From an uncultured Aliarcobacter sp. (GTDB lineage Bacteria > Campylobacterota > Campylobacteria > Campylobacterales > Arcobacteraceae), in the NCBI GenBank assembly GCA_964384195.1, contig CAYLKG010000002.1, forward strand, positions 2,117 through 66,116: a DNA stretch of 64,000 nucleotides, given 5' to 3'. Below are positions 12,932 to 24,858 of this stretch, one piece after another. Position 1 is the first letter of the stretch; each line of letters opens with the position of its first letter. The notes under the pieces were generated by a model. It had not been told where the DNA came from. It saw only the letters and a list, made by a program, of their open reading frames with translations, and did not search any database. The translations under genes were made by a program, and so were the position numbers.

Positions 12932-13926
12932 TTAAAAAAATTCTACTGCATCATCAAAAATTTGAATACCATCAGCTGCTGTTAGATCACTATATTTTAA
13001 GAATTGTGCCCTTCCTTTATTTTTTGCTTCATAAAGTGCTACATCTGAATGTTTTATTGAATCATTGATTGTTTCTTTAGAATTTAAAACAAATTTATTC
13101 ATTCCAATACATATTGTCTTTTTCAAAATTTGTTTATTTTTATCATCAACAATAATATCTGTATTTGCAAAATCATCAATTATTTTTAAAGCCAAAGATT
13201 CTACTTGATTTTCATTTGAATTACTTAATATTGATACCAAAAATTCATCTGTTCCAAGTCTTCCAACTAAATCAAAACTATCTATATTAGAGTGAATAAC
13301 TCTTGCAAGTTCAACCAAAACTTTATCTGCAATATCATAATCAAATTCATCGATTACAGCTTTAAATCTATCTACTCCTATCATTAAAAAGAAAATCTCT
13401 TCTTGATTTTTATTTGATAATCTTAAATGATTTGTAAGATTTTGGATTAAATAAGTTCTATTATAAACATTTGTAACAGAATCAAGAGATGCTGATTCGA
13501 TAAAGTTCTTCTTTAAAATAAGACTTTGTATTATAGGAGAAACTTGAAAAAATGCGGCTTGTATTGTTTCGTAATTATCTTCTATAATCTTATGATGGAT
13601 TTTTGAGTTTGCACAAAAAGATACAGTTGCATTTAGACTTATATGTGTATTTATTATAAAAAAGTGAGAAAAATCATCATCAAGAAAAAAACCCTCACCT
13701 TTTAAAAAATCACATCTTTATTGTTTTTATTTATATCAAATAGGCTAAATTCTATATTTGTGATTTTAAACTCATATTCAAGCCAATTGAAAATATCTTC
13801 AGATAATTGTTTTAAATTCGTAGAATAAGTTAACTGTTCTTGGAGAGAAAAAATACTTTCAAGAGACCTATATATAAATTCATTTGTAGCAGAAGATTTT
13901 ATTAATTCCATCATTTTATATTTCAT
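12932..13926 (-). pseudogene. Degenerate GGDEF-domain protein (GTDEF), frameshifted
   Basis: 74-aa ORF ends ATT TTT TAA at 13702; one extra T in the T6 run (13704-13709) gives an open 331-aa frame continuing LKGEGFFLDD...LDSVTNVYNRTY into the 12932..13384 ORF. Confidence 0.85.
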
Positions 13927-13933
13927 GTATTTC

Positions 13934-14836
13934 CTAAAATAGTTCTATTTTATTTGTTTCTTCATCATTAAATAAAAACACCTTATTACGACCTTTATTT
14001 CTAGCTTCATAAAGTGCAATATCAGACTTTTTAATTATTTCATCTATTGTTGTTGCATTATCTGGAAAAATAGATATCCCTCCACATATTGTTTTCATCA
14101 ATACTTGTTGGCTATCTTCATTTACTAAAACTTTTTCATTACTAAAATTACTTATTAATTTTTCAGCTATCATCACCGCATTTGTATCTGAAAGAATATT
14201 TAACAAAATAACTAAAAACTCATCATTTGAAATTTTTATTACAATATCAGATTCTCTTAAACTATTTTTTAGTGAATCTGCCAAAGCTTTTAGAACTTTA
14301 TCACCCATTTCATAATCAAATTCATCTATTACAGCCTTAAACTGATCGATTCCAATTTTTACGAAGGCTATTTTTTTCTCTTCTCTAGTAGAAAGACTCA
14401 ATAAATTTCTAACATAATTATTTAGATAGTTACGATTATAAGAGCCTGTTATTGGATCAATTAAAGTTAAATTATTTATAGCTTTTTCTATGTACTTACT
14501 GTATAAAGATTGAGAAAATACTTGAAGTGCCATTTTTATATTTTCTAAATGTTCAGAAAGGTCTTTTGCTTCATCTTAATCATTTAATAAAAATGTAAAT
14601 CTTATGATTGTATTTATGCTCTCATAAAAATCTAAAGAGATTTTTAGATAATCAGCTTCTTCATCAAAAAAAGAGAATATATTTTCTTTTTTATCTTCTT
14701 TATAAACATCAATCTTAATAGCATTTACACCATGGTGAATATTAAGATATTCAAAAATATTTAAAGCACTTTTATCTAAATCTGAAATCTTTAACTTATT
14801 GTTCTCACTCATAATTAATTCACAAGAATATTGCAT
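13934..14836 (-). pseudogene. Degenerate GGDEF-domain protein (SNDEF), interrupted by in-frame stop
   Basis: 86-aa ORF ends in TAA at 14576-14578; the same frame continues DEAKDLSEHLENIK directly into the 199-aa GGDEF ORF (300 aa total). Confidence 0.85.
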
Positions 14837-14842
14837 ATATCT

Positions 14843-15442
14843 TTACGCCTTTATGTATTTTTCCCATTGTTTTATAGTTTGGACTTCATTACTTAGTGTC
14901 GTTTTTGAACCATGTCCTGGATAAATATGGTAATTATCTTCCCATTCTAAAATTTTTTGAAGGCTTTTTTTCATATCACTTGCATTTGACATTGGAAAAT
15001 CAAATCTTCCAATAGTTCCACTAAATATAAAATCCCCACTAAAAAGTGAACCATTTATTTCAATCACGCTACATCCAGGAGTATGTCCTGGGAAATGATG
15101 AAATTTTATTTTAACTCCAAAAAGTTCAAGTTCTTCATCTGGATTTACTAAGACATCAGCATAAGAAGGAGGCATACCAAGACTATATGGATTTAATGTA
15201 AGCATAAATTCATCATCTTTTGGTATATAAAGTTTTATATTAAAAAGTTCTTTTACCTCTTGATTTGACCACACGTGATCAAAATGACCATGTGTATTTA
15301 AAACAGCAACTGGATTTTTAGCATTTTGCTTAACCCAAGCAGTTGCGCCAACTCCTGGGTCTATTATAAAGTCTTTTTCATCAATACTAACAATATAACA
15401 ATTTGTTCCGTAATCCCCCATAGGATGAACTTTTATATCCAT
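14843..15442 (-). CDS. MBL-fold metallo-hydrolase (glyoxalase II/YcbL-like)
   Basis: THGHFDH, PGHTPG, SGDFIF, PGHG. Confidence 0.9.
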   Translation of the reverse strand: MDIKVHPMGDYGTNCYIVSIDEKDFIIDPGVGATAWVKQNAKNPVAVLNTHGHFDHVWSNQEVKELFNIKLYIPKDDEFMLTLNPYSLGMPPSYADVLVNPDEELELFGVKIKFHHFPGHTPGCSVIEINGSLFSGDFIFSGTIGRFDFPMSNASDMKKSLQKILEWEDNYHIYPGHGSKTTLSNEVQTIKQWEKYIKA

Positions 15443-15496
15443 TTTAAACCTTACTTCGCTAAAATTTAATTCATTATATCAAAAAAAGGTTAATTT

Positions 15497-22583: not shown

Positions 22584-22586
22584 AAA

Positions 22587-22823
22587 ATGAAGATAGAGAT
22601 TTTAGGAACAGGGTGTAGCAAATGTAAAGCCTTAGAAGATGCTACGAGAAAAGCAGTTTCACAAATTGGTGGATTTCATGAAATAGTTAAAGTTGAAGAT
22701 ATAGTAGAAATTATGAATTATGGAGTTATGAGTACACCTGCTTTGGTTGTTGATGGTAAAGTTAAATCAGCTGGAAAATTACTAAGTATAGATGAAGTTG
22801 TATCACTAATTATTGGAAAGTAA
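22587..22823 (+). CDS. MTH895/TM0996-like small thioredoxin-fold protein
   Basis: ILGTGCSKC, YGVMSTPALVVDG. Confidence 0.9.
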   Translation: MKIEILGTGCSKCKALEDATRKAVSQIGGFHEIVKVEDIVEIMNYGVMSTPALVVDGKVKSAGKLLSIDEVVSLIIGK

Positions 22824-22851
22824 TTCATATATTTTGGCTTGTTGTCAAAAG

Positions 22852-22877
22852 ATAAATAAAGCAAATGCTTTATTTAT
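22852..22877. terminator. Bidirectional terminator between arsP operon and EAL gene
   Basis: ATAAATAAAGC-aaat-GCTTTATTTAT. Confidence 0.65.
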
Positions 22878-22878
22878 T

Positions 22879-24858
22879 CTATTTTTTTTCTAAATCTATT
22901 TCGTAGTTTTCTAAACTAGAAGCAGGAAGGGCTTTTGAGAAATAAAAACCTTGAACAACATTTATATTACTTTCTTTGACAATTTTTATCTCTTTTTCTG
23001 TCTCAATACCCTCTGCAACAATCTCAAAATTTTGATTTTTACACATAGTAGCTATATTTTTATAAAGTGTTTCACCTGATTTAGTTTTAGCATTTAAAAT
23101 TAAATTTCTATCCAATTTTATAAAATCCATTGGTAAAATATTTAGATATTGTAAACATGAAAAACCAGAACCAAAATCATCAATATAAATTTTAAATCCA
23201 TTTTCTCTGAGTTTTTCTATATTTTTAATAAATAAATTCATCTCTTTGGCAAAAGTTCTCTCCAAAATTTCAATACTTACTTTGAAGCCTTTAAATTCAT
23301 CTATTATTTTTTGAACAATATTTTCATTGCAGATTGATTCAGGAGAGATATTAATACTTACTTTTGGATAAAAATTTCTTTCTTTCCAAATAAGTAAATC
23401 TTTTTTCAATTGATTTATAACCCAAATATCAATTATTCTTTCAAAGCCAATTTGCTCAATCTTGCTAATAAAATATGGTCCTACAATATCTCCATCGCTT
23501 TTTTTAAATCTAAGTAATGCTTCATATCCCCTAACTTTTATATTTCTTATATCAACTTTTGGTTGATATATAACAAAAAACTTCCCTTTGATAAATCTTT
23601 AACAAGCTTTGAAATCTCTTTTTCTTCATTTATAATATCTTGTTGGGTTTTTATTGAATTTAAATGTAAAGTTTTTTCAAAATGTTCTTTAATTCCTAAT
23701 GAACTTTTAAAATTTTCAAAATAACGATTTTCACCTAAATATTTCTCATAATTTTTAATAAAAGGTAGATAAATCAAGATAGCAACAACTAATTGAATTA
23801 TTTGTAAATATACATAAGTAAAATTATTATCTGCTATATAACCACTAATAAATATTGGAGTAATCCATGAAATAGAGATATCATGAGCTATTGGATTTAA
23901 ATAAAAATACATAAGCAATAAGGAAATTTGATAGCGGAGCAAGAATAAAAGGTAAAAGTAATCTTACATTCAAAATAATCGGTAAAGCAAAAAGTAGTAT
24001 TTCATTTATATTAAAAATAGAAAAAGGTAAGGTTATAAGCGCAATTTTTCTAATAAAGCTTTGTTTAATAAAAAATATTATTGTAAGTACTAATCCTAAA
24101 GTGCTTCCATCTCCTCCATAAACAACAAAATTATTTATAAAAATATCTGCATTGATATTTCCAACAATATTTTGTTTTAAATAACCTTCTCCAAAAATAG
24201 AAATAACTAAATTGGTTCCATGAATTCCAGTAGTCCACCATATAATTCCTGAAATAATAAGATTTAAAATACTTAATAATTCTATTGGTGAATTTTCTAA
24301 AATATCAAAAAACTCTAAAGTTGAAAGGTAAAATATAATTTCAATTAAAAATATAATTATAAAACTACACATAATAAAAGTTATTAAAAATGGAATAATA
24401 GACCTTAAAACATCTTCTAATTCATCATTTATATCATCGAATTTTGTGTATTTATTGAATTGTTCAAAAACTTTTCTATAAATAAGTAACGTTAAAATTG
24501 GCATAATTATCATCAAGAAATCAAATTTCAAATTTATATTTATTATATTTACATCTTTATATTCCCAATAAAAAAAGATAAATAGTAAGAAATTTACCGT
24601 AGGAATAATAATTCTATTTAAATCAAAGTTTTTAGATAAAAAATATGAAATTGATGTTGAAATAACTAAAGGTGTTGCAAATGAGTACAAGTTTATAATT
24701 TTCTCATTTATTTCATAGAGTAAATTGTCTTTTAAATCCAAAATATCTAATAACTGATAGGATAAAATACTAACTCCTATAATTATAAAATATGGCAATA
24801 GATTCAAAAATGATTGGCGTATGGAGATTAACCATAAATTGTTGTTTAATAATAACAC
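22879..24858 (-). pseudogene. PTS EIIC-like membrane domain fused to EAL phosphodiesterase, two frameshifts
   Basis: EIIC motifs (TGIHG, FSIFNINEILLFALPIILN); frame break at 23903-23907, second break at 23575-23580; then YQPK...GYEALLR...DDFGSG...AEGIET. Rebuilt length about 659 aa. Confidence 0.85.

Follow-up and report, generated by a model that had tools for sequence, protein, structure and literature searches.

Sewage is dominated by Aliarcobacter species, among which are emerging pathogens, and the traits regarded as contributing to their virulence include flagella and chemotaxis. We examined a 64,000-nucleotide stretch of a genome from an uncultured Aliarcobacter sp. (hereafter, the window), which corresponds to positions 2117-66116 of contig C2 (CAYLKG010000002.1) in assembly GCA_964384195.1 (G000; 148 contigs, 2.12 Mb, 28% G+C), and focused on three genes, referred to as A, B and C, that carry domains of cyclic dimeric guanosine monophosphate (c-di-GMP) signaling. 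Relatives of this genome carry the names Aliarcobacter or Arcobacter, and the closest complete one, G002, shares approximately 82% DNA identity with it across the stretch that holds genes B and A; G011 is a further relative. Scans with GGDEF and EAL models returned exactly three matches in the window, corresponding to genes A, B and C, and the reading frames of all three are broken. By contrast, when open reading frames (ORFs) of at least 80 amino acids were compared with G002, leaving out four that have no ortholog there, the approximately 64 remaining ORFs aligned end to end with their orthologs at full length (3/3 versus 0/64 broken, Fisher p = 2e-5). A preliminary description of the window had reported the same division between three broken GGDEF/EAL genes and about 60 full-length ORFs. 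To follow each lesion beyond this assembly, we turned to public metagenomes, among which 20 runs contain at least 94% of the words sampled from the stretch. The lineage occurs in metagenomes of wastewater, estuary, soil and freshwater origin, which come from 9 studies, and allele states were read from contigs assembled separately for each run, a procedure that drops rare variants.

Gene B (14836..13934, minus strand) encodes a degenerate GGDEF protein whose downstream piece matches the Pfam GGDEF model (PF00990) with E = 8.1e-32. An in-frame TAA at 14578..14576 divides it into an 86-residue N-terminal piece and a 199-residue GGDEF piece, and an ATG that is also found in G002 lies 14 codons past the stop. 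The gene is intact as a single ORF of 301-310 codons in G002 and G011 and of 300-318 codons in 21 named species of the family, and the TAA is unchanged in contigs from 12 runs of 9 studies, which is every run examined. The two parts of the protein have diverged unequally: identity to relatives is 59% for the N-terminal part, versus 73% among the relatives themselves, and 83-84% for the GGDEF part, versus 88%, such that divergence of the latter is a little above expectation.

Gene A (13926..12932, minus strand) encodes a second degenerate GGDEF protein (Pfam GGDEF E = 1.6e-29). A 1-bp deletion near position 13703 leads to a stop after 74 codons and leaves the other 255 codons open in another frame; comparison with intact alleles identifies the lost base as the single one between a T6 run and an A4 run. 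Intact orthologs encode 331 amino acids in G002 and G011 and 321-331 in the 21 named species. We detected the broken allele only in four runs of one wastewater study, P1 (X1, X2, X3 and X12), and the intact allele together with a linked single-nucleotide polymorphism at 13789 in eight runs from 7 other studies. Because the frameshift is confined to the population of one study, the loss of gene A is recent and local, and the agreement of its state with study and linked polymorphism suggests descent rather than switching. In two of the P1 runs, X1 and X3, there are also contigs that fuse the GGDEF regions of genes A and B (window positions 13426 and 14227), skipping 800 bases; these probably reflect a short identical stretch of the tandem paralogs, either in the assembly graph or through recombination.

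The GG(D/E)EF motif of active diguanylate cyclases is intact in neither protein: in its place gene A has GTDEF and gene B has SNDEF, the latter with RESD, a match to RxxD, at the I-site position just upstream. These active-site motifs are the same in the intact orthologs of G002 and G011, and the two proteins are therefore probably not cyclases even when full length. Their N-terminal domains returned no Pfam match.

Gene C (24858..22879, minus strand) combines a PTS_EIIC-like membrane domain (Pfam PTS_EIIC E = 2.7e-10) with an EAL domain (E = 1.5e-54) and is read in two frames across three pieces. The EAL match covers model positions 10-235, and the catalytic motifs of EAL phosphodiesterases (PF00563; EAL, N, E..E, DDFG, K, EG.E and QG) are present, with YEALLR, DDFGSG, EGIET and QGF readable in the translation, so that by domain and motif content gene C is a predicted EAL phosphodiesterase. 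It belongs to a family of EIIC-EAL fusions: among the first 60 matches listed, 59 contain PF02378 and 58 of these also contain PF00563. Its single reading frame is broken twice here, once by a 2-bp deletion near 23913 that shortens a TA repeat from TATAT to TAT and once by a 1-bp deletion near 23568 that converts TT to T. Compared with one intact allele (L197), it differs by these two deletions and 7 mismatches in 2292 bases, and intact 660-amino acid alleles with 95-98% identity exist in other metagenomes. Both deletions recur in two independent runs, X7 and X10, one from an estuary and one from soil, and the sequences agree throughout 1.3 kb. We considered if the two deletions might compensate for one another, as they sum to 3 bases, but a stop lies 30 bases after the first and the protein is thus not rescued.

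Gene C sits in a variable island (window 20641-24858, versus G002:1263979-1274165) bounded by gamma-carbonic-anhydrase-like and zinc-ribbon genes, where the window also holds a DUF2703 gene, a DSP-type phosphatase, a permease and a thioredoxin-like gene. The same interval of G002 carries approximately 10 kb of other genes, judged by eye to be hydrogenase-maturation-like and cobalt-transport-like, and keeps just the first 35 or so codons of gene C, beside a transposase-like ORF. Run X4, whose strain is otherwise near-identical, yielded no contigs over most of gene C (22800-24546), with a contig end at 24547, and its strain may be without the gene.

The same lesions are present in contigs of independent runs, which identifies them as true mutations and rules out assembly error, as the preliminary description had argued on other grounds. 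The lesions are specific to the lineage, and genes A and B are single intact ORFs in every relative named above. Intact orthologs or alleles exist and the lesions lie in the DNA of the organism rather than in one assembly, and on sequence grounds we classify genes A, B and C as pseudogenes, gene B possibly being a truncated remnant, and not as switches. In annotation, they should be treated accordingly and not as assembly errors in need of fixing. Of the lesions initially described as one nonsense mutation and three 1-bp homopolymer indels, the nonsense mutation stands; the others are the 1-bp loss between two runs, the 2-bp loss in a TA repeat and the 1-bp loss in TT, and none of the four changes the length of a long tract.

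We next asked how far this pattern extends by calling ORFs across the whole of G002 and G000 and comparing the two with tblastn in both directions. Out of 1462 testable orthologs, 26 were flagged as broken relative to G002 and approximately 20 remained after removal of start-site and low-complexity artefacts (~1.4%). The reverse test flagged 8 of 1512 genes as broken in G002, most of them apparently spurious ORFs, leaving approximately 3. An alternative genetic code or readthrough, raised by the many in-frame stops of a first tblastn pass, was rejected as most of these stops were close to the ends of over-extended ORF calls, within the initial or final few percent. For comparison, the genome of the motile strain Aliarcobacter butzleri RM4018 has 5 pseudogenes and no insertion sequences (PMC2147049).

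Assigned from Pfam matches and sequence, the broken set includes CheA, CheR, MotA and up to four chemoreceptors; two PAS histidine kinases, an HDOD protein, a Cache-GGDEF cyclase and a Cache-GGDEF-EAL protein; T2SS-F, two pilin-like, ComEA-like and ComF-like proteins of pili and competence; and, for the rest, a few envelope genes (OmpA family, YkuD, DUF748) and a pirin. Essentially no housekeeping gene is broken. Two further c-di-GMP genes carry lesions, namely a GGDEF gene on contig C16 that is truncated next to an apparent transposase ORF and a REC-HD-GYP gene on C24 with a TGA within its HD motif. In total, 7 c-di-GMP genes are broken, 9 are intact (eight GGDEF/EAL and one HD-GYP) and approximately 10 lie at contig ends where they cannot be scored; GGDEF/EAL frames number 21 here versus 33 in G002. 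The preliminary description had proposed a count of broken c-di-GMP genes against all other genes as a check, with an equal pseudogene rate in other classes as the outcome that would overturn it. We instead found c-di-GMP genes to be strongly over-represented, both in the strict ortholog test (3/12 versus 17/1450, Fisher p = 4.5e-4) and in the inclusive count (7/16 versus 17/1450, p = 1e-9). Its statement that all lesions fall in c-di-GMP genes holds inside the window and fails genome-wide, where other classes are hit as well.

The lesions differ in how widely they are shared. The motA frameshift and the frameshift of the Cache-GGDEF gene (C73) each recur in 4 independent runs and the cheR stop in 2, whereas the cheA stop is absent from 4 of 4 independent runs and is therefore local, as is the lesion of gene A. 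Two observations on individual sites may be added. In a 136-codon membrane-protein gene beside motAB, a TAA (G000:C37:7016-7018) is polymorphic and is replaced by a sense codon in a minority strain of X8 and X10. In the frameshifts of gene A and of motA (G000:C37, ~8660), the base lost is in each case the only one separating a T-run from an A-run, and several further 1-bp deletions take out a lone G or C within A/T context, which may represent a mutational bias of this AT-rich lineage.

Alongside these point lesions, the genome lacks much of the flagellar apparatus. The Flg_bb_rod model matches once here versus six times in G002, and 25 consecutive G002 genes (657,659-680,604; 23 kb) have no counterpart anywhere in the G000 assembly, among them an FlgF-like rod gene, FliG, two FlgE-like genes, FlhF, FlhG, FliK, FliR and FlhB. 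The contigs that flank this deletion, C47 and C85, both finish in the terminus of one insertion sequence (IS), and one of the contigs at the deletion cuts the rod gene after 17 codons. When the G002 region was compared with contigs from 4 runs of 3 studies, summed depth dropped approximately tenfold exactly at the junction (e.g. from ~200 to ~20), where the IS terminus is present as a loose end. At a second flagellar locus, located inside contig C3, FlgH, FlgK, FliD and FliS are deleted and FliQ and two neighbors have decayed. The depth drop, the IS terminus shared by both flanks and the second deletion within a single contig exclude a binning artefact as the source of the 23-kb loss. Still open are FlhA, which lies next to the deletion, FliL, an FlgG-like gene and flagellin-family genes, and the loss therefore looks recent. 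With core rod, hook, FliG, FlhB, FliR, L-ring, FlgK and FliD genes absent, the lineage is predicted from its gene content to have lost the flagellum. Our literature searches turned up no description of a sewage Aliarcobacter lineage that is non-motile. The IS itself is multi-copy, with a terminal TTAACTTTCGCAC and two kinds of inner sequence that represent its two ends; it interrupts the assembly at 14 contig ends, and one more terminus is located inside contig C4 near 61064. As G002 has approximately 12 of the same termini, we do not claim an expansion of this element.

Chemotaxis, motor and pilus genes are also broken and flagellar genes are deleted, and for this reason the c-di-GMP lesions appear to belong to the decay of an entire network. 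The likely explanation, in our assessment, is that the behavioral network of stator, chemotaxis, c-di-GMP and pili is decaying progressively, after loss of the flagellum, in an Aliarcobacter lineage that is common in sewage-type metagenomes. Deletion of the flagellar loci, one of them replaced by an IS and one within a contiguous contig, would have made swimming impossible; chemotaxis and the c-di-GMP network that governs the choice of motile or sessile behavior would then have come under relaxed purifying selection or, alternatively, loss of these genes may have been mildly favored; and ordinary point mutations, small deletions and IS insertions would have built up in them. Lesions common to samples of several studies (motA, cheR, gene B, gene C and Cache-GGDEF) are the older, fixed ones, and the cheA stop and the gene A frameshift, each confined to the population of one study, are recent. 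The earlier proposal of a lineage-specific dismantling of c-di-GMP signaling is thus borne out insofar as the lesions are genuine, lineage-specific and non-random. They are not specific to c-di-GMP, and with eight GGDEF/EAL genes and one HD-GYP gene intact the signaling is thinned rather than dismantled. Laboratory passage, also put forward at that stage, is excluded by the occurrence of the lineage in natural and wastewater metagenomes of 9 studies.

We weighed four other explanations against network decay. It is conceivable, though unlikely, that c-di-GMP signaling is itself the target, with selection knocking out particular GGDEF/EAL genes so as to lock in one lifestyle and with the motility and chemotaxis lesions being secondary. 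c-di-GMP genes do have the highest broken rate of any scored class among those that could be assessed, the gene B stop is fixed in 12 of 12 runs and the catalytic motifs of gene C were intact when its lesions struck. Nonetheless, the two GGDEF proteins of the tandem probably lack enzymatic activity, genes for the putative synthesis and for the putative degradation of c-di-GMP are both broken, giving no consistent direction, and the deletion of approximately 30 flagellar genes is a far larger event that alone would make the network redundant. An adaptive program specific to c-di-GMP is the less economical account.

It is improbable that the split genes remain functional, either with gene B operating as two polypeptides, the GGDEF part starting from the ATG that follows the stop, or through a recoding bypass. 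The proximity and conservation of this ATG, the fixation of the TAA in all samples and the barely raised divergence of the GGDEF part all fit such an arrangement, but the N-terminal part is clearly accelerated, single-ORF versions are universal in relatives, we saw no recoding signal, and genes A and C have lesion-free intact alleles at >99% identity.

Reversible contingency switching by slipped-strand mispairing in simple repeats, as occurs in Campylobacter motility genes, had been offered as a further possibility and appears highly improbable. In its favor, the genome is strongly AT-rich and contains numerous short runs, both states of gene A occur in nature, and two broken genes, on C91 and C112, differ from G002 in A7-A9 runs. 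Set against this, no window lesion alters a long tract, one is a nonsense mutation, gene C requires two separate events, the state of gene A follows study and linked polymorphism, and many lesions elsewhere in the genome are nonsense codons or IS insertions; in addition, the contigs of each run, which drop rare variants, show one state only. Finally, an origin of the lesions in errors of sequencing, assembly or binning, as a draft metagenome-type assembly might contain, is barely credible, since, for all the fragmentation of the assembly and its many paralogous signaling genes at contig ends, contigs that were assembled separately in up to 9 studies show the very same lesions, a single contig spans the second flagellar deletion and depth profiles show the first directly.

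Several points weigh against decay of the network after flagellar loss, or limit how far it can be taken. The order of flagella first and signaling second is our reconstruction rather than a dated sequence, and all the shared lesions show the same degree of fixation among the samples examined. In many bacteria, no gene class is as dispensable as the sensory genes, such that some enrichment is expected even where flagella are kept. The nine intact c-di-GMP genes indicate that the network retains some role, and the c-di-GMP genes at contig ends, along with several chemoreceptor genes, escaped scoring. Minority alleles inside samples are invisible because contigs rather than raw reads were compared. 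The link from C47 through a single IS copy to C85 is not closed by sequence, and the aflagellate phenotype is a prediction from genes.

Genes A and B belong to a conserved gene block. Upstream of gene B lies an intact metallo-beta-lactamase-fold gene (14843..15442, minus strand) with 89% identity to its G002 counterpart, and the block of metallo-beta-lactamase-fold gene (197-217 amino acids), gene B and gene A is conserved in the same order in 19 of 21 related species. Downstream of gene A is a 349-bp gap (12583..12931), at the place where G002 has a flagellin-family gene of 276-280 codons (Flagellin_N match at G002:1291952-1292335; ORF 3522..4352 in L032); no equivalent gene is present in this portion of the contig that carries the window. 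Across 121 genomes of the family, 97 have both gene A and FlhA, 14 have FlhA only, 2 have gene A only and 8 have neither, an association (nominal p = 1e-5) that is confounded by phylogeny, as the absences are concentrated in two or three genera with small genomes; in addition, the 14 genomes with FlhA only are flagellate and yet do without gene A. We tentatively suggest that the lineage is a cosmopolitan sewage clone caught very early in reductive evolution, just after flagellum loss, whose samples preserve successive steps of decay, and that the family-conserved degenerate tandem pair B/A, being broken only where flagella are gone, is perhaps a flagellum-linked c-di-GMP effector module.

If this is true, the order in which a behavioral network breaks down would be readable from public metagenomes. 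With some lesions fixed and others local, the lineage would constitute a natural time series of the decay of chemotaxis and c-di-GMP networks after loss of motility. A widespread non-flagellate lineage would also alter what can be concluded from an 'Arcobacter' sequencing read in wastewater surveillance, and the conserved degenerate GGDEF pair is flagged as a candidate for motility-linked function. Two genes apart from these merit brief mention: a 339-amino acid hemerythrin-PAS protein (window 5282-6301) has no ortholog in G002, and a DUF748/OmpA-family gene (1007 amino acids in G002; G000:C2:52-2174), which overlaps window positions 1-58, has an apparent frameshift near codon 446, just outside the window, followed by the contig end.

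Individual components of this lineage resemble characterized systems to differing degrees. Degenerate GGDEF proteins of the PopA or PelD type act as c-di-GMP receptors through the I-site, and in sequence gene B likewise has an RxxD motif (RESD) at the I-site position, upstream of its non-catalytic SNDEF; gene A, unlike these receptors, is without RxxD. The two-domain architecture and approximate length of 660 amino acids of gene C are those of the 'diguanylate phosphodiesterase (CelB domain)' of Malaciobacter mytili LMG 24559, to which it is 42% identical when read through, but unlike such EIIC(CelB)-EAL phosphodiesterases the gene in the window has two frameshifts. In Campylobacter jejuni, the motility genes flgR, flgS and motA are phase-variable by homopolymer slippage, and the present case is similar in that an AT-rich member of the Campylobacterota has frameshifts in motA and signaling genes. 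It differs in that the lesions are not length changes of long homopolymers, include nonsense mutations and large deletions, and appear fixed within each population. At the level of the genome, there is a parallel with Shigella and enteroinvasive Escherichia coli and with Yersinia pestis, which have undergone reductive loss of flagella, chemotaxis and c-di-GMP genes. There too, a lineage-specific combination of nonsense mutations, small indels, IS insertions and deletions has struck mainly motility and GGDEF/EAL genes and has left housekeeping genes intact. Unlike those pathogens, the present lineage is an environmental or sewage member of the Campylobacterota with no known host restriction, and its decay is at an early stage, with approximately 1.4% of orthologs broken and FlhA and 9 c-di-GMP genes still open. 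Overall, the lineage adds a new case to a well-known type of reductive evolution.

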